A stretch of DNA of 64,000 nucleotides from an uncultured bacterium. GTDB taxonomy: Bacteria; Bacteroidota; Rhodothermia; Rhodothermales; DASSAV01. Location of the stretch: NCBI GenBank assembly GCA_966250015.1, contig CBINFS010000001.1:231309-295308 (forward strand), read 5' to 3'. How positions within the stretch are numbered: position 1 is the stretch's first letter; each line of letters starts with the position of its first letter. Positions 3,104 through 12,381 of the stretch are shown here, one piece after another. The notes under the pieces were generated by a model, which saw only the letters and a list, made by a program, of their open reading frames with translations, ran no database searches and had not been told where the DNA came from. The position numbers and the translations under genes are program-made.

Positions 3104-4420
3104 TTACACTCTACGAAAACGTTTTTCGACGGCATCCGTGAAGGCCACGGCCGTCTCGCCGTAAATGTTGACCTGATATTTCTTGAACACCTCTTCGGCA
3201 ACAATTTTGGACGCTTCGGCCCAGGAATGGGCCTCGTGAAGGGACTTGAGCACCGTCTCGTAGGCTGCCTTGTTGCCTCCGAAGAGGTTTCGAATGAAGA
3301 CGTCCCGGTTTTGAATGCCGGGTTCTCCCAGCACTTCGCGTTCGAGGGCGGCGAGACCCGGATCCCCTACCACAGCAGGTTCGGACTGTTTACGGAATTG
3401 CATCCAGAGTGGGACTTTCTGAGGCTCTGGGCTGCCTTTCGGTGCAGGCGCGGGCTTCACGGGCGGCGTCTTCGCACGGTCAGCGGCAGCAACGGTTTGC
3501 CCTGACGAGGTCTTCTGTCGGAATTGCTGCCAGAGAGGGACGGCAGCTTGCGTTTCAGGGGCAGGGGACGCCGGTGGTACCGGGGCCGCCGGCCGCACGG
3601 GCTCCTGGACAGGAGGCAACGGCCTGGCCACCGGTTTTTCGACTTCAGGCTCCAGAGGCTTCTCGAGCAGACGCTTCAGCCCGGATTCGTCAAGGACGTG
3701 CAGGTTCTCTCGCTGCTGAAGCTCCCTGAGGCGCGAGACGATCGTGCCGGCTCCCTTGTTTTCAAAAAAGATGCAAAGCAGATCGATCGGGACGCCTGTT
3801 TCGGGGAAAACCTGCACCGTGCGCATGAACTCGAATGCAGGGTTCAAGAGCCGAATCCAATCCTCGGGCGTGTAGTCGCTGGTCATCCGGCGATCGCTTC
3901 GCGTCAGGACCGAGGCAAAACGGCTTCGATCGATTTCGTGGAGGTTCTTTTGTTCGGCGTATGCCTTCAGGACTTCCCGGAGGTACGAGTAGACGCCGAA
4001 GTAAGCCATCCGCCGGTAGATCACCCGAATGGGCAACGGTCCGCTTTCGTCCTGAAAGACAAAATCGACCAGGGTATGCGTGGGCTGGAACAGATACGAA
4101 GTGACCTCAAAGATCGCCCGTTCGAGCTTGTCGGCCCACTCGTCCCGGGGAATCCGGGTGTGGGTCGAGAGCGCCTGCGTAAGGGCTTTGAAGGCGCTCT
4201 GAACTTCGGGATGATCGTAATCGAACCAGTCTGAACAGGCGGCCCGCAGCTCCTCAATTTCCAGGTCCACGCTGCGCTGCATCGTCTGTACGAGGAAGTG
4301 AGACACGAGCCAGGGCATCGGCTCTCTTTCGAAACTCGATTTTGGATATGGCCGATCCGGTGGATACAGCCCGATCAGACGTTTGAATATCAGGTTTGAT
4401 ACTTCGCGCAACATTGTCAC
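3104..4420 (-). CDS. Hypothetical protein with a Pro-rich linker flanked by a repeated VPLW(Q/M)QFR(Q/K) motif
   Basis: A 438-aa ORF with coding-like composition and no recognisable catalytic motifs. The motif VPLWQQFRQK...VPLWMQFRKQ occurs twice, about 40 aa apart, around a PAPAPK-rich segment. Confidence 0.55.
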   Translation of the reverse strand: MTMLREVSNLIFKRLIGLYPPDRPYPKSSFEREPMPWLVSHFLVQTMQRSVDLEIEELRAACSDWFDYDHPEVQSAFKALTQALSTHTRIPRDEWADKLERAIFEVTSYLFQPTHTLVDFVFQDESGPLPIRVIYRRMAYFGVYSYLREVLKAYAEQKNLHEIDRSRFASVLTRSDRRMTSDYTPEDWIRLLNPAFEFMRTVQVFPETGVPIDLLCIFFENKGAGTIVSRLRELQQRENLHVLDESGLKRLLEKPLEPEVEKPVARPLPPVQEPVRPAAPVPPASPAPETQAAVPLWQQFRQKTSSGQTVAAADRAKTPPVKPAPAPKGSPEPQKVPLWMQFRKQSEPAVVGDPGLAALEREVLGEPGIQNRDVFIRNLFGGNKAAYETVLKSLHEAHSWAEASKIVAEEVFKKYQVNIYGETAVAFTDAVEKRFRRV

Positions 4421-4709
4421 TTCAACCGGTTAGTTTCCACTTCCGCATCGTAAGGTAAAGTTTCGCATCCATCGGTGCAGCCGTTTTGAACCCGATCGAC
4501 CGTGAAGAACGGGTTGAACCCGCCCCTTCCATTTTGTAAAGAACGCGTAATCCGGACGCACAGGCGACGTGACAGGCTTTCTCTTTTATAACATTCGGAT
4601 GGAGGATAACGAAAGAATGTTTAGATTCAACGGAGAAACGTGAAGCGGGATGCGTGGGCTGGAATTATCTTGAAATAAGACAAGCATATCATAAAAAAGA
4701 GGAAGGGGT

Positions 4710-5813
4710 ATGAAGTGTATCGCCCTTAGCGTCAGGAAATACCTGGCCGTTTTTTTTGTGGTTCTGGGAGCCGGTCTGCTTTTCAGTGCCTGTGATTCGT
4801 CCGATCCGATCGATGGTGGCGTCGAGGTGACCGTGATGACGCGGAATCTTTACCTCGGTGGCGATCTGTTTACCGTCGTCGGAGCCACGTCTCCCACTCA
4901 GGTGCCGCTCCTGGTCGGACAACTCTGGCAGGCCATCGAAGCCAGCAACTTTGCCGAACGCGCGGAAGCCCTCGCCGACGAGATCGTCGAGAATCAACCG
5001 CACCTGGTTGGACTGCAAGAAGTCTCGCTTTACCGTACGCAAACTCCGAGCGACTATCTCACCGGGAACGTAGAAGTCAATGCATCAACCGTTGCGATCG
5101 ACTTTCTCCAGCTTCTCATGGATGCCCTTGAAGAGCGGGGTGCGGATTACCGCGTCGTCGCCACGTCAAACAACGCCGACGTGGAGATGCCCGCCGTTTT
5201 CAGCCTCACCCAGACGATGGACATTCGGCTTTCGGACCGGGACGTCATCCTGGCACGGGGTGACGTGGAAGTCAGCGGCCCGGTGACGCGTAATTTTTCG
5301 TTGAACCTTTCCATCCCGATTGGAGGCGAAGGAGGGCCGACGGTGTCGTTCACTCGAGGCTACGGCCTCGTGACGGCGGTGGTCGACGGTGTCCAGTTTA
5401 CGTTTGCAAACGCGCACCTCGAGGTCGGTGGTGAAGCAGCGTTTTTTCAGGAGGCCCAGGCTCGCGAGCTGGTGAACAACCTGCAATCGCTACCCGATCC
5501 TGTGATCCTCGTGGGTGATTTTAACAGTCCCGCCGACGGATCAGACACCGACTCGTACGGTGTGCTGACCGAGCGATACACCGACGCCTGGGCGGAGCTT
5601 CAGTCCGCCAACGGATTTACCTGCTGCCAGGCGGCGGATCTGCGGAACACGACGTCGCAACTCGATAACCGGATCGATCTGATCCTCTACCGTGGCAACG
5701 TTGAGGCACAGGAAATCGATCTCGTCGGTGAAAATCCGGCGGATCGCACCCCTTCAGGGCTCTGGCCTTCCGATCACGCCGGCGTGGTGGCAACCCTCGT
5801 CATCACGCAGTAA
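4710..5813 (+). CDS. Endonuclease/exonuclease/phosphatase (EEP) family lipoprotein
   Basis: A lipoprotein signal (LLFSAC) is followed by EEP-fold motifs (VGDFNSPADGSD ... PSDHAGVVATL). Confidence 0.7.
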   Translation: MKCIALSVRKYLAVFFVVLGAGLLFSACDSSDPIDGGVEVTVMTRNLYLGGDLFTVVGATSPTQVPLLVGQLWQAIEASNFAERAEALADEIVENQPHLVGLQEVSLYRTQTPSDYLTGNVEVNASTVAIDFLQLLMDALEERGADYRVVATSNNADVEMPAVFSLTQTMDIRLSDRDVILARGDVEVSGPVTRNFSLNLSIPIGGEGGPTVSFTRGYGLVTAVVDGVQFTFANAHLEVGGEAAFFQEAQARELVNNLQSLPDPVILVGDFNSPADGSDTDSYGVLTERYTDAWAELQSANGFTCCQAADLRNTTSQLDNRIDLILYRGNVEAQEIDLVGENPADRTPSGLWPSDHAGVVATLVITQ

Positions 5814-5836: not shown

Positions 5837-6991
5837 TTATGATCCCAGGTTCGACGCCGGGATGAATCGCATCGAGATCGAGTTGACGCAGTGCCGTGTG
5901 TTTTTGGCCGTGAAGCCTTCACCCTCGAACACGTGGCCGAGGTGCGCTCCACAGTTGGCGCACAGGATTTCCGTGCGGCGGCCGTCTGCGTCCAGGGTGC
6001 GTTTCACGGCGCCGGGTATTTCGTCGTCGAAGCTCGGCCAGCCGCAGTGTGCGTCGAACTTGTCTTCCGAACGGTACAGCGGGGCATTGCACTGCCGGCA
6101 GATGTAGATGCCGGCCTCGAAGTGTTGGTCGTATTCCCCGGTGCCCGGGTATTCCGTGCCCTTATAGAGGATGACACGCGCTTCTTCGGGTGTCAGGGGG
6201 TTATAGTCGCCCTTCTGTTTTACCGGAGGCAGGCCGAAGGCGTCCTGTATGGATCGTTCTGGTTTCAAATCGTTGTCCTCGAATCTTTTGGTGTACACGT
6301 GACAGTACGGTAGCTTGCCCGTCTTCGCGTAGTAGTCCTGGTGGTACTCTTCGGCTGGCCAGAAGGTCGACGCCGGCTGGACCTGGGTGGCCACGTCGTA
6401 GCCTTTTTTCTCCAGGATGCGGATGAGCTCCTCTGCGGTCTCGCGTTGGGTATCGTTCAGGTAGAAGATGGCCGAGCGGTACTGCTCGCCAATGTCAGGC
6501 CCTTGCCGATTAACCTGCGTGGGGTCGTGTATCTCGAAGAACAGCCTCGCCAGATCCCGGTACGACGTTTTTCTGGGATCGTAAATCACTTCGATGGCTT
6601 CGGCGTGGCCGGTATTTTTGTAGCTGACGTCCTTGTACGTCGGGTTGTCGACGTGCCCACCCGTATATCCAACGCGCGTGGACAGCACACCCGGCGCCCG
6701 TTTGAAGTGGTACTCGACGCCCCAGAAACAACCCCCGGCGAAAATCGCCACGGTGGAGGTATCCGATGTACCGGCAGTTAGTTCGGGTGTGGGCGCCGTG
6801 GTCTGCGCCACGGCTACTCCCGGGCTCGATAGGGGGGCATACCGCGGGAAGTAGAACAGCAGGACGGCGCCTGCACCTGCGATGGCCAGCGGGAGCACGG
6901 CCATTCGACCGGATTTGTTTTGCCGCTCGTACAGGGCGAGTACGAGAGCGCCCGCAATGAGTATCAACAGCAAAATCAGAATCGGTTGCAT
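5837..6991 (-). CDS. msrAB: Bifunctional peptide methionine sulfoxide reductase MsrA-MsrB fusion with N-terminal membrane anchor
   Basis: The MsrA GCFWG motif (GGCFWGVEYHF) is followed by an MsrB domain (CGWPSF, RTEILCANCGAHLGHVF), preceded by one or two hydrophobic helices. The start is taken at the internal Met MQPILILLL. Confidence 0.88.
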   Translation of the reverse strand: MQPILILLLILIAGALVLALYERQNKSGRMAVLPLAIAGAGAVLLFYFPRYAPLSSPGVAVAQTTAPTPELTAGTSDTSTVAIFAGGCFWGVEYHFKRAPGVLSTRVGYTGGHVDNPTYKDVSYKNTGHAEAIEVIYDPRKTSYRDLARLFFEIHDPTQVNRQGPDIGEQYRSAIFYLNDTQRETAEELIRILEKKGYDVATQVQPASTFWPAEEYHQDYYAKTGKLPYCHVYTKRFEDNDLKPERSIQDAFGLPPVKQKGDYNPLTPEEARVILYKGTEYPGTGEYDQHFEAGIYICRQCNAPLYRSEDKFDAHCGWPSFDDEIPGAVKRTLDADGRRTEILCANCGAHLGHVFEGEGFTAKNTRHCVNSISMRFIPASNLGS

Positions 6992-7378
6992 GGCCTTGCC
7001 CTCCAATCGTGATCGAACGCCCGGATGCGCCTGCCGGCTCACCAGACGAACTACGACGCTTCAACGGTGTTGTTTCGGTCGTAAGTGTCCTAAAATGGGT
7101 CACCTACGCTATCGATCAGTTCAAGAGTTCGCAGGGTATGCCGCTACGTTGTCACCCCGTCGTGTTAGCCTTCCGTTTGGCCTGACTGGTTGTGTCGGAG
7201 ACGTTCCGTTATCAGCCCGCTGTTACACCGCAAGTATGATTGTGGGGCAGCGCCGGTATTCCACAAAAATTATCGGTGTGGGTGAGACGAGCGTGAACCG
7301 GTACGGCCAATCATCCGTTTGGATAGGGGATTCTGAATAAGTGGAGAGCACAGCTCCTTGGAATATTTAGAGCTTCAG

Positions 7379-10351
7379 ATGGACGAACGCATCATCATTC
7401 GAGGCGCTCGCGAGCACAATCTCAAAAACATCGACCTGGACATACCGCGAAACCAGCTGGTCGTGATAACCGGCCTGTCGGGTTCGGGGAAGTCGAGCCT
7501 GGCCTTCGACACGATTTACGCCGAAGGTCAGCGGCGATACATGGAGAGCCTGAGTGCGTACGCGAGGCAGTTTCTCGGGATGATGGAGCGCCCCGACGTC
7601 GATTTCATCGACGGTTTGTCTCCGGTCATTGCCATCGAGCAAAAGACGGTCAGCCGGAACCCTCGCTCGACGGTGGGGACCGTTACGGAGATCTACGACT
7701 TCTTACGCCTTCTTTTTGCGCGGGCGGGTACCGCGTACTCGTACGTCTCCGGCGCCCCGATGCGCAAGCAGTCCGACGACGAGATCATCGACGGCATCCT
7801 CCAGTTTCCGGAGGGCACCCGCGTCCTGATCCTTGCGCCGCTCGTGAAGGGACGAAAAGGCCATTATCGCGAGCTGTTCGAGCAGATCACGCGCCAGGGA
7901 TTCCAGCGCGTCCGCATCGACGGGGAGGTGCGTGAGGTCACACAGGGGATGCGCGTCGACCGGTACAAGACGCACGACATCGAAGTGGTCGTGGACCGGA
8001 TCGTGGTGAAGGAGGGCGTGCGGCCCCGCGTGAGCCAGTCGGTGGAGACGGCGCTCGGGATGGGGAGCGGGACCCTGATTGCCTGCGTCGTCGGCCTCCC
8101 GGAAGACGCTGAAGGAAATTTTCCTTCGGTGCCTTACGACGTCCTGTTCAGCCGGCATTTGTTTAGCCCGGAGGACGGGATCTCCTACGATGATCCGTCC
8201 CCGAACACCTTTTCGTTCAACTCACCCTACGGCGCGTGTCCGGTCTGTAACGGCCTCGGCTCGCAACGCGAGCTCGACATCGATTTGCTTATTCCAGACA
8301 AATCGAAATCGATCGCGGAAGGCGCACTGGCCCCTATTGGCAAACCGCGGGACATCTGGATTTTCAGCCAGCTACGGGCAGTCGCCGACGCCTACGGCTT
8401 CGACTTCGACACGCCATTCAACCGCCTTTCGGAGGAGCAGCAAAACGTGATTCTCCACGGGGCCGGTGACCGGCAGTTCGACATCGTTTATCACTACAAG
8501 GATCGGGAGGTTCGCTACAAGCATCGCTTCGGCGGACTTTTCGAACACCTGCACCACACGTACGACAGCACGACGTCTCCATCGCAACGGAAGTGGGCCG
8601 AGTCCTACATGCGGGAGATGCCCTGCAAGGAGTGCGGAGGAGGCCGGTTAAAACGGGAGAGCCTCTCGTATAGAATCGGCGGGAAAAACATCGCCGAGCT
8701 GGTGGCGATGGACCTGACGTCGCTGCGCCGATTCTTCGACGACGTGGAGTTCAGCGAGCGGAATCGAATCATCGCGGAGCCGATCATAAAAGAGATCTGC
8801 GAGCGGCTCGACTTTTTGATCAACGTCGGAGTAGAGTATCTGAACCTCGATCGTCCGGCGCGGACGCTTTCCGGCGGCGAAAGCCAGCGAATTCGGCTGG
8901 CCACGCAGATCGGCACGCAGCTCGTCGGCGTGCTCTACGTGCTGGACGAACCGAGCATCGGGCTTCACCCGCGGGACAACCATCGGTTGATCGAATCACT
9001 CAAGTTGCTGCGCGACCTCGACAACTCCGTGCTCGTCGTAGAGCACGACCGGGACATGATCGAATCGGCAGATTTCGTCGTTGATCTCGGCCCGGGCGCC
9101 GGTGAGCGTGGAGGAGAGGTCGTTCGAGCGGCATCGCCGAAGGAGTTGCTGGTTTCGTCAAACGGCCACGTGGGCCTGACGGCCTCATACCTGAAAGGGG
9201 AAAAGCACATCGGTGTCCCGAAGCATCGCCGGCCCGGAAATGGCCAGCACCTGCGCCTGTACGGAGCAACCGGACACAACCTCAAGGGGGACACGCTGGA
9301 CCTTCCGCTGGGCATGTTCGTCTGCGTGACGGGCGTGTCCGGATCGGGCAAGTCGAGCCTGATCAACCAAACGTTATATCCGATCCTGGCCGGCCGTTTC
9401 CACCATGCCCGTGAGGTCCCGCTGCCGTACGAACGGATCGAGGGACTCGAACACATCGATAAGGTGATCGACATCGATCAGAGCCCGATCGGCCGTACGC
9501 CCCGGTCGAATCCGGCGACCTACACGGGTCTTTTCAGCCACATCCGCGATCTTTTTGCGCTTCTGCCGGAGTCCAAGATCCGGGGTTATAAGCCCGGCCG
9601 TTTTTCCTTCAACGTGAAGGGAGGACGGTGCGAGACGTGTAAGGGCGCCGGGATCGTAAAGCTGGAGATGAATTTCCTCCCGGACGTCTACGTCGAATGT
9701 GAGACTTGTCACGGCAAACGCTACAACGCCGAGACCCTCGAAGTCCGCTACAAAGGCAAATCCATCGCGGACGTTCTCAACATGACGGTGGCGGAGGCGC
9801 TGGAATTTTTCGAGAACGTGCCCAGGATCGAGCGGAAACTGAGAACGCTTCATTCGGTGGGGCTCGATTACATTCGCCTGGGCCAGCAGGCCACACGCCT
9901 GTCGGGGGGTGAAGCCCAGCGGGTCAAGCTCTCGAAGGAGCTCTCCCGTCCGGGCACGGGGAAAACGCTGTACATCCTGGATGAGCCCACGACGGGTCTA
10001 CATTTCGAGGACATTCGCCAGCTTCTGCTGGTGCTACAGGCACTCGTGCGAAAAGGGAATACGGTGCTCGTCATCGAGCACAACATGGACGTCGTCAAGG
10101 TGGCGGACTGGGTGATCGACATGGGTCCCGAAGGAGGCGAAGCCGGCGGCTCCATCATCTTCTCCGGCACTCCGGAAGACCTGGTCAAAAGCGGCACCTA
10201 CACCGGGCAGGCCCTCAAAATCGAGCTCGAACGATCGGCCTACGCTCCGTCCGAAAACGGCATGGACGAGCTAATCGACCTCGATTCTCTGGTGGCTGAC
10301 GACGAAGAAGCGGACGAAAGCGACCTGGAAGAGGAAGCCGAAGAAGAGTAA
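7379..10351 (+). CDS. uvrA: Excinuclease ABC subunit A (UvrA) with acidic C-terminal tail
   Basis: N-terminus [23 protein letters not shown], two ABC ATPase modules ([25 protein letters not shown] signatures) and zinc-finger cysteines ([16 protein letters not shown]; CETCHGKRY). The ATG at 7379 is preferred over the TTG at 7358. Confidence 0.96.
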
Positions 10352-10457
10352 AAAAGGCGTTCGGATCTTCCATCGTGATCGTTTGTTTTCCCGGTTTGTC
10401 CCGGAAATGCGGGGGCGTCAAACAACTCTTTTCTGGTCGGTTAGCACGACTACACGG

Positions 10458-11045
10458 ATGGAATTTGTCATAGAAGTGGCGGGTCCCCAACATTTGACCT
10501 ATGCAGAAGAGATTTGCAGGGTCATCGAGGAAGCCGCAAAGGCGAGAGGTACCGGTATTGCCAAACGTGATCCGGAGTACATCCGCAAGAAAATTCAGGA
10601 GGGAAAAGCGGTAATCGCCCTTCACGGAGAGGAATTCGCAGGATTTTGTTATATCGAGACCTGGAGTCACAACAAATACGTGGCGAACTCGGGCCTCATC
10701 GTGGCGCCACCTTTCCGAAAGGCCGGGCTGGCGAAACGAATCAAGAAGATGGCGTTCGACCTCTCCCGCAGCCGCTTTCCGGAGGCGAAAATCTTCGGCA
10801 TCACGACGAGCCTGGCGGTCATGAAGATCAACTCGGAGCTGGGCTACAAACCGGTGACCTTCTCAGAGCTGACCACCGACGAGGAATTCTGGAACGGGTG
10901 CCGGAGCTGTCCGAACTTCGACGTGCTCACCCGCACCAATCGGACGATGTGCCTCTGCACGGGGATGCTGTATGACCCTGCCGAAGAGCTCAAAGCACGT
11001 CGGAACGGCCAACCGGAAGGGGAAGAGGGGGCACAACCATCCTGA
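10458..11045 (+). CDS. GNAT family N-acetyltransferase
   Basis: GNAT motif A (RKAGLAKRI) and a typical acetyl-CoA binding core. The start is taken at MEFVIEV. Confidence 0.6.
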   Translation: MEFVIEVAGPQHLTYAEEICRVIEEAAKARGTGIAKRDPEYIRKKIQEGKAVIALHGEEFAGFCYIETWSHNKYVANSGLIVAPPFRKAGLAKRIKKMAFDLSRSRFPEAKIFGITTSLAVMKINSELGYKPVTFSELTTDEEFWNGCRSCPNFDVLTRTNRTMCLCTGMLYDPAEELKARRNGQPEGEEGAQPS

Positions 11046-11159
11046 CAGGCGGATTGTTTTCTGCACACGAAGACAGGCTTCATTATTGGTGGAGGAGTGC
11101 TGCTCGTGCCCTCCAGCAATTCCTGAAGGCCACATTTCATAAAGATCCCTAGTCAATTC

Positions 11160-11690
11160 TTTCCTCGGGATGACAAAGTGGAGTGACAGGAATGGCAATG
11201 AGGCCAGATACCTGCCCATACCTCTCTACTTGTCATTCCGAACCCGCAAAGCGGGTGAGGAATCTTCCCGAAGTGCGGCCATTCTGGTAGGCTCCAGAGG
11301 CGAATGCTTCCGTATGTTCCGGCATGGCCGGGATGACGTGGTGTTGGGAGTGTGGTGAGTGAAAACGATCACGTTGGGAGAGGCTTAAGCGTAATAAAAT
11401 TAAGTCATTCCGGACTTGATCCGGAATCCAGGAGGGAGCTGCGCGAGGCCAATCCGTTAAGTCTGATAGAACCGTTGCCAGGATCTCCGCATTCGCGGAG
11501 ATGACGTGTTGGGTAAGGTTGAAGTACAATATCACGTCCCGCCTTCGGTCTCCATCTCATCAAAAAATCATCTGCGCTAATCTGCGCCATCGGCGGATTT
11601 TTTAAGCCTTCGCGTGTGTCCTATCAGTCAAAGTCAGGGGGTACCCGTTCTCAATTGTGATCCACCGTCAAGTCATCCCCTGGGGACTCG
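11160..11690. repeat. Non-coding region with two tandem ~115-nt paralogous structured elements and six copies of an 8-mer GTCAT(T/C)CC / GGGATGAC
   Basis: The box GTCATTCC occurs at 11232 and 11404, GTCATCCC at 11672, and the complement GGGATGAC / GAGATGAC at 11168, 11330 and 11497. Unit 1 (11230-11348) and unit 2 (11402-11513) share the order 5' box -> ATTCC...GGAAT hairpin -> GGCCA(A/T)TC -> short hairpin -> GATGACGTG(G)TGTTGGG. The hairpins differ in sequence but keep base-pairing. Confidence 0.6.
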
Positions 11691-11901
11691 TTGTATGTAG
11701 CCTCCAGCCGATAGGCGTGTGCAGCATTTTGAACAGAATGGGCGCAACGGCTTGGATCGCTATCTTTCGATTCAAACAGTTTGACGGCGGGTAGGCCGAT
11801 TTCGAGCATTAAATCCGTCAGGGTACGGATTTTGCGTTAAGAATGGGTGGGTGTGCGAAAGCGCTACGTTCAATCACCGTACACTCGACCACCTTCCTGC
11901 C

Positions 11902-12381
11902 ATGCGAAAACCAATTTTGCTAATCGCCGTAGCCGGTCTGAGCCTGCTGTTTCTCTTCGGATGTTCGCCCTACGGGTACACCTCGGTGATGCGGTTCCCG
12001 GATGAATGGCACAGGCGTGCCAGGAACTATGGTTACCGCGTCGATCAAGACGTGCGCGAATACGTCCGTTTCGTCGATCGGCACGTGGGCTTGAGTAATC
12101 AGCAAGCGCGCCGGATCGACCGGATGCTCACCGAGCGGACGTACCGGTTGATCGAGCGTAGCCGCAACCCGGAACGTGTATATCCCTTTCCTCGTCGCTA
12201 CGTCAGGGACCAGAATAACACCGAGCGTCGATTCTGGCGGTCTGCCGACGCGACCATCGAGCGGTATCTCGACCGAAGACAGCGACGGGAGTATCGTGAT
12301 CTCGTCCGCCGAGAGTTCCAAAGTCGGGACCGTTACGACCGTCGATATGATCGGAATGATCGTCGCTACGATCGGGATTAG
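11902..12381 (+). CDS. Lipoprotein, Arg/Asp/Tyr-rich with C-terminal RYDR repeats
   Basis: Signal peptide with lipobox (LLFLFGCSP). The C-terminus reads RDRYDRRYDRNDRRYDRD. It is the first gene downstream of the repeat region. Confidence 0.6.
   Translation: MRKPILLIAVAGLSLLFLFGCSPYGYTSVMRFPDEWHRRARNYGYRVDQDVREYVRFVDRHVGLSNQQARRIDRMLTERTYRLIERSRNPERVYPFPRRYVRDQNNTERRFWRSADATIERYLDRRQRREYRDLVRREFQSRDRYDRRYDRNDRRYDRD

Follow-up and report, generated by a model that had tools for sequence, protein, structure and literature searches.

What is the long spacer downstream of a GNAT acetyltransferase gene in an uncultured bacterium, with its two structured and apparently duplicated units, and does it work as RNA or as DNA? 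In the window that we analysed (the whole stretch of DNA, 64 kb), the plus strand carries uvrA (7358-10351), then the GNAT gene (10383-11045), and then a small ORF without a Pfam match (start at 11851 or 11903, end at 12381). Between the GNAT gene and this ORF lies a gap of 857 bp (11046-11902), in which no ORF has a Pfam match, the Pfam scan near the repeat array having covered the six ORFs beside the region; a first-pass annotation of this DNA had likewise seen no protein-coding signal there. The GNAT protein is 73-78% identical to those of Roseithermus and of uncultured Rhodothermaceae MAGs, and UvrA is ~80% identical to the proteins of the same relatives. Judged from these two proteins, the source organism is a relative of Rhodothermaceae. 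We conclude that the region is very probably a small cluster of CGTC-tagged REPs, or NTS-like (Ssn-related) motifs.

Tagged hairpins in alternating orientation

The gap contains five or six short hairpins, here called modules, each built as (C/T)GTC-AT-stem-loop-stem-AT-C, which begin ~100 nt past the GNAT stop codon, between flanking genes on the same strand, and which alternate in orientation along the region (- + - + -). Both this alternation and the common (C/T)GTC-AT...AT-C design had been overlooked by the first-pass annotation. In the shared design, an unpaired (C/T)GTC tag stands 5' of a stem that opens with A-T and T-A, pyrimidines pair with purines, the distal stem and the loop vary between modules, and a C follows the stem.

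The two units first proposed for this region do exist, with a hairpin near each end, and their extents here are 11231-11338 for unit 1 (modules m2 and m3) and 11403-11506 for unit 2 (m4 and m5). Each consists of two modules in opposite orientation, whose GTC tags point outward and between which lies a spacer of ~50 nt. The left end of unit 1 is m2 (11231-11264, plus strand), in which the TGTC tag is followed by ATTCC-GA-ACCCGC-AAA-GCGGGT-GA-GGAAT and a final C, and whose hairpin has a folding energy of -17 kcal/mol (z -3.4). The spacer (11265-11313) leads to the right end, m3 (11314-11338, minus strand), a degenerate module that reads CGTC followed by AT-C-CCGGC-CAT-GCCGG-AACAT, and whose tag and 5-bp hairpin are legible directly from the sequence. 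Unit 2 opens with m4 (11403-11430, plus strand; AGTC, ATTCCGGA, CTTGA, TCCGGAAT and CCA) and closes, after its own spacer (11431-11478), with m5 (11479-11506, minus strand; CGTC, ATCTCCGC, GAAT, GCGGAGAT and CCTG), the hairpin of which folds at -15.3 kcal/mol (z -3.6). Upstream of unit 1 stands a module that had not been annotated before, m1 (11144-11175, minus strand), with a TGTC tag, ATCCC-GAGGAAAGAATTGACTA-GGGAT and a closing C. Its inner hairpin is degenerate and its tag faces m2; no significant left partner of m1 was found.

The earlier claim that conserved boxes follow one another in the same way in both units is right for the terminal hairpin modules only and fails for the internal spacers, the similarity of which is not significant (293 of 1000 shuffles score as high). 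The units can be called paralogous only through their terminal modules, because the spacers resemble each other no more than shuffled sequences do.

A 13-nt box of the unit 1 spacer, TGCGGCCATTCTG, recurs inverted at 11734-11746 (4 of 1000 shuffles). A doubtful third unit can be drawn at 11662-11790, where a 10-bp inverted repeat, CCACCGTCAA / TTGACGGCGG, surrounds ~110 nt; within it lies a GTCAT hairpin that is a possible sixth module, m6 (11671-11692, plus strand; AGTCATCCCCTGGGGACTC), and it also encloses the 13-nt box CAGAATGGGCGCA, complementary to the box in the unit 1 spacer. This stretch may be a decayed dimer, or it may be unrelated.

A repeat family dispersed among genomes

The number of exact GTCATYCC copies in the 64-kb window is 11, five of them in 11167-11679, against an expected count of 4.95 across the whole 64 kb. 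The first-pass annotation had counted six copies in the region, far above chance, and had proposed a genome-wide count as a test for a dispersed repeat family. The concentration stands; the number of exact copies in the region is five, the sixth copy being GTCATCTC. The longer pattern GTCATYCC-N3-30-GGRATC occurs three times in the window, all in the intergenic region (m1 is among the matches), versus 0.10 expected.

We scanned the window with a covariance model, R1, made from 61 copies that come exclusively from other organisms. It gave exactly three matches with E<0.01, namely m2 (32.2 bits, E 4.3e-5), m1 (28.1 bits, with E 3.5e-4 for the window as a whole) and m4 (23.1 bits, E 4.6e-3). Once the filters were switched off, m5 came out as marginal (10.1 bits, E 0.05 inside the intergenic region), and m3 (0.5 bits), m6 and the distal end of the putative third unit were not significant. 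The search of the rest of the 64-kb window with R1 found no further module copy outside the intergenic region. In the family alignment the invariant GTCA...TC was forced by our search patterns, and it is not independent evidence because those patterns demanded these letters. An inner stem pair that the scans did not demand covaries (GC 29, AU 18, CG 7), and the tandem G.A/A.G is retained in 54 of the 61 copies.

Copies are spread over other genomes. When the region was compared by blastn with 80 syntenic Bacteroidota loci, copies of the m2 design appeared in genomes of Kapaibacterium (L055) and Christiangramia. In viral contigs, TTGTCATTCYGA-N5-25-GARGAATC is found on at least 120 contigs, with at least 147 modules, and the commonest form among the matches listed is the 27-nt TTGTCATTCYGA-GCGNAGC-GARGAATC. 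A structural scan of ~1.66 Mb of unselected Bacteroidota fragments yielded some two dozen module candidates in non-syntenic positions, and the Bacteroidota MAG J06614_4 (L006), which is among the closest GNAT relatives (75%), carries three tandem dimers. In addition, 27 nt of m4 (11404-11430) are identical to a copy on plasmid pMC4 of Sphingopyxis indica (L201 1501-1527), which is itself half of an inverted dimer with tags outside. Among all fetched loci, 76 pairs of neighbouring modules have their tags outside, and in 70 of them the distance is no more than 150 nt. Neighbours with tags inside are mostly separated by over 500 nt, which makes the dimer the repeat unit.

Other searches returned less. 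Plasmids searched by blastn with a canonical unit gave no match, since repeats this short and diverged lie below the sensitivity of BLAST, and a full-text search of the literature with the module sequence gave primer lists alone. We also looked in the fetched loci for genes that lie between inverted modules, and no transposase or nuclease candidate emerged.

Two of these copies deserve a description of their own. The identity of the 27-nt module spans a relative of Rhodothermaceae and an alphaproteobacterium. In L006, positions 4000-4760 hold three tandem repeats of ~260-340 nt between convergent ORFs, each with a tags-outside dimer, in which the modules are ~50 nt long and contain large inserts.

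Named repeat families and the Ssn nuclease

Among the closest published systems are the CGTC-tagged REPs, families CGTC-1 to -4 (Di Nocera, De Gregorio & Rocco 2013, PMC3733652). In that paper, the tag is CGTC or TGTC (CCTC too) and stands unpaired at one end of a stem-loop, the stem of 8-9 bp opens with AT, the loop has 4-5 nt and the tail is mostly CCA. The repeats form mostly tags-outside ('HH') dimers with spacers of 20-100 bp. Five phyla are reported to carry them, Bacteroidetes and Chlorobi among them, and they form clusters in Neisseria, whose dRS3 is family CGTC-1.

The modules described here carry TGTC (m1 and m2), CGTC (m3 and m5) or AGTC (m4). The stem of m4 fits in full (8 bp, 5-nt loop, CCA), and that of m5 also has 8 bp, with a loop of 4 nt and CCT as its tail; these two match the published description almost point for point. 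Modules m1 and m2 also start with AT and continue with a 5-bp basal stem, the tandem G.A/A.G, an inner hairpin and a CTT tail; m3 is degenerate with respect to the published stem. Units 1 and 2 are both tags-outside dimers with spacers in the published range. The array thus shares with CGTC REPs the tag, the A-T/T-A start of the stem, the HH dimers and an extragenic site between same-strand genes. It differs in the m1/m2 variant, with an inner hairpin of variable length, and in the AGTC tag of m4, and a relative of Rhodothermaceae is not among the organisms named in the passages of the paper that were consulted. The suggestion of MITE-like elements with terminal inverted repeats, one of several made for this region at first, came closest: both units are built as inverted dimers from a palindromic repeat family that is already known and dispersed.

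In Neisseria, dRS3 has been extended to the 28-nt NTS, CGTCATTCCCGCGMAVGCGGGAATCYRG (Chenal et al. 2025, PMC11893778), and NTS-like 'Ssn-related motifs' (SRMs) flank genes of small GIY-YIG proteins (cd10448; PMC11893778). The nuclease SsnA binds and cuts the NTS as single-stranded DNA only, not as RNA or double-stranded DNA; cleavage needs 3 nt upstream of the palindrome, binding needs the C after it, and the loop tolerates change or extension (PMC11893778). In N. meningitidis the motif-nuclease pair lowers transformation by motif-bearing DNA, and the role of the motif outside Neisseria is stated as unknown in the same paper (PMC11893778). Our modules resemble this system in the tag, the base of the palindrome and the 3' C. 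A hand-made search pattern for SRMs, HGTCWYN(0-2)YYVSBRHN(0-5)WNVSBRGN(0-2)RNCYNB (PMC11893778), matches m5 as its sole match in the window, where 0.53 matches are expected by chance per 64 kb, but it does not fit m1-m4 or m6, and the 64 kb contain no ssn gene. In addition, the dRS3 pattern itself (ATTCCC-N8-GGGAAT) is absent from the region, and the window has one match with one mismatch, at 6133, which is at chance level.

The link to ssn genes is visible in other genomes. Using as tblastn query a consensus of the small GIY-YIG protein family, we recovered ssn-type genes that all encode PF01541 (GIY-YIG). The ssnA gene of N. gonorrhoeae sits within an array of 16 R1 matches (the NTS), and the ssn gene of Planktothrix is flanked by three dimers of the m1/m2 subtype, TGTCATTCTGAG...GAAGAATC, which score 30-43 bits with R1. 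In Novosphingobium there is a CGTC hairpin 39 nt upstream of the ssn gene and another 3 nt downstream. Of five ssn relatives on viral contigs, however, only one has an R1 match nearby, and one more has a tagged hairpin recognised by eye. The same model matches the modules of the window as well as those flanking ssn genes, and the 'TGTCATTCYGA-hairpin-GARGAATC' variant falls into one family with the motifs that flank these genes. In the 64-kb window and in L202 (a metagenome contig of the same population), no ssn homolog was found (tblastn E>0.7), nor in any other fetched locus.

The Planktothrix gene lies on a Planktothrix agardhii plasmid (NZ_LR882964; L284 1-2667), between a type IIL MmeI restriction-modification gene and the DISARM gene drmA, which is a defence-island setting.

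By analogy with Neisseria, the array (two HH dimers and m1, in alternating orientation, downstream of uvrA-GNAT) would present a tagged hairpin once one of its strands is single-stranded, and this hairpin would be bound by an Ssn-family nuclease. From the published work, we expect a small single-domain GIY-YIG enzyme, encoded elsewhere in the genome, whose cut would adjoin the tag. Such cutting lowers the recombination of incoming motif-bearing DNA in Neisseria, and the motif-ssn-motif architecture suggests that the nuclease may also seed the spread of the repeat. We infer that a cognate Ssn nuclease cuts these hairpins here and drives their spread in the same way. For recognition, nothing but the tag, the basal part of the stem and the 3' C would matter. 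If these alone are constrained, the distal stems and loops can drift or extend, and the pattern of different sequence with the same pairing would arise between units because their distal parts are free to drift among repeat subtypes. The first-pass annotation had read this pattern as compensatory change, expected of a functional RNA; the differences between the hairpins are real, and the subtypes of a DNA repeat explain them.

Some features also recall the NIME arrays of Neisseria, in which dRS3 flanks RS segments (PMC1797815): the hairpins are intergenic and alternate, and the segments of 50-65 nt between them are unrelated. Unlike NIME, the array is small (5-6 modules), and we saw no link to filamentous-phage integration or to antigenic genes.

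Conservation, strain variation and competing readings

The syntenic relatives L002 and L003 retain uvrA-GNAT. In L003, fadL follows ~300 nt after the GNAT gene, and there is no long spacer, no array and no lipoprotein gene (the first-pass reading of the downstream ORF); downstream of uvrA-GNAT in L002 there is no lipoprotein or fadL match. The conservation in related genomes that the first-pass annotation had looked to as support is thus missing in L003, and tblastn with the ORF 11851-12381 matched in 0 of the 80 genome loci fetched with a GNAT match, L003 included. An orthologous alignment for covariation could not be made because the closest genomes have only 73-78% GNAT identity and L003 lacks the long spacer.

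Contig L202 offers a much closer comparison, with 99.6% identity to the window over 6591 nt and no indels. The two differ at 25 positions, 20 of which fall in 11151-11539, the most SNP-dense part of the 6.6 kb. The changes in L202 disrupt module pairs at 11240, 11412 and 11171; the R1 score falls from 32.2 to 24.0 bits in m2 and from 28.1 to 20.6 in m1, and m4 drops off the match list. Since the changes within m1, m2 and m4 all reduce the fit to the family model, the three model-supported modules show no sign of purifying selection.

These data bear on the idea that the array is kept for a host function, whether in terminating the uvrA-GNAT mRNA or stabilising its 3' end, or in insulating it from the downstream gene. 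The position of the array, just after the GNAT stop codon and between same-strand genes, is suited to such a role, which has been proposed for enterobacterial REPs (PMC3733652), and family copies prefer sites downstream of genes. However, the array is not conserved in L003, it is where most of the strain differences accumulate, and no U-tract terminator follows the modules. We hold this reading to be unlikely. It is compatible with the identity of the repeat, to which it merely adds a role.

Slightly less likely still is mobile DNA of the REPIN or MITE type, in which a transposase (RAYT or IS200-like Y1, or a classical IS), and not an Ssn-type nuclease, would move the modules. Two inverted hairpin repeats around a spacer are indeed the architecture of a REPIN, and the clustering of the modules, together with the preference of family copies for convergent over divergent gaps (18 vs 7), is REP-like. 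More generally, REP/BIME and REPIN-RAYT systems share with our modules the tagged hairpins, the inverted doublet as unit, the clustering and an enzyme partner that works on single-stranded DNA. Yet the tag of those systems is GTAG, whereas the family tag is (C/T)GTC and those of the modules are (C/T/A)GTC, and their enzyme is an HUH Y1 enzyme and not GIY-YIG. Moreover, PMC3733652 found CGTC repeats to lack any RAYT or other transposase partner, while PMC11893778 and the present checks tie the modules to GIY-YIG ssn genes.

The proposal made first, in which units 1 and 2 would be two small RNAs paralogous to each other or, in tandem, the cis-regulatory leader of the gene at 11902, and would be selected as RNA, draws on real observations: the single hairpins are stable (z -3.4 to -3.6 for m2 and m5), unit 1 folds better than its shuffles on the plus strand (z -2.7), and the gene-free region upstream of a same-strand gene is long. 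But the two strands of the units fold about equally well, with z -2.4 on the minus strand of unit 1, and -0.9 (plus) and -2.1 (minus) for unit 2. The tags of the two modules within each unit are on opposite strands and the unit spacers are unrelated. Family copies are not biased in their orientation towards the genes next to them (26 same, 34 opposite), and wobble pairs show no asymmetry between strands (T.G 6 vs A.C 7). The absence of the long spacer and lipoprotein gene from L003, the lack of a lipoprotein or fadL match in L002 and the SNPs that break pairs in L202 count against it as well.

Rfam gave the same answer. The covariance search that had been suggested as a check returned no match at gathering score in the whole window, and the canonical family units matched nothing. 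At E<=10 the region has just two chance snoRNA matches (E 1.4 and 8.8), the former, to a C/D snoRNA, being the only Rfam match of the unit 2 spacer. SRP RNA, which parts of unit 2 had been thought to resemble, is not matched even at this threshold, and we dropped it. The supposed terminator, a plus-strand hairpin flanked by A6...T6 (11562-11603), is weak (-11.4 kcal/mol, z -1.4) and was not reported by the terminator scan. Every DNA-or-RNA test points to DNA, and what was found is the very outcome that the first-pass annotation had set against a functional RNA, a known repeat family; an RNA-selected pair or leader is thus highly improbable. Should the array also act at the RNA level, for example through hairpins in the 3' UTR of the GNAT mRNA, this would be a by-product. 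None of these three readings is favoured over a cluster of CGTC-tagged REPs, a known kind of DNA repeat and not a new RNA. This removes a false lead and adds documented repeats of the NTS/SRM type in a bacterium related to Rhodothermaceae.

The strain differences are themselves unevenly placed. Fifteen of the 25 fall in a patch of 48 nt (11171-11218, or L202 2720-2767) in the 55-nt linker between m1 and m2, whose tags face inward; the patch has 15 substitutions (8 transitions, 6 transversions) and no indels, and the remainder of the two sequences is ~99.9% identical. Neither the window nor any of the fetched loci holds a recognisable paralog of the patch, which may be a recombination tract bounded by the tags or an assembly chimera. 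One segment that differs sharply between near-identical strains recalls the mosaic exchange of RS segments, or recombination tracts, proposed for NIME arrays (PMC1797815), and a patch between two tags is a small hint on how the motifs shape recombination. We entertain, as an improbable extension, that the array is an active site of tag-bounded exchange in which the 48-nt patch was replaced in a co-occurring strain and, separately, that the motif-nuclease pair takes part in phage-host conflict, because the motif is abundant on viral contigs and an ssn gene lies between a restriction enzyme and DISARM. If true, the exchange site would supply, for a bacterium other than Neisseria, evidence from nature that patches of recombination are bounded by Ssn-type motifs. 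A separate idea, adenine-specific mutation of the patch as in DGRs, was rejected, as the changes occur at all four bases.

In metagenomic and viral contigs the 'TGTCATTCYGA-hairpin-GARGAATC' variant is common and often yields spurious short ORFs, and recognising the family allows annotators to mask such regions. In two of the viral contigs (L177, 2887-9254, and L140, 6917-12730), tags-outside dimers stand in nearly every intergenic gap, and they mix the stem subtypes TTCC, TTCT, TTTC, TCCT, TCCC and TCTC.
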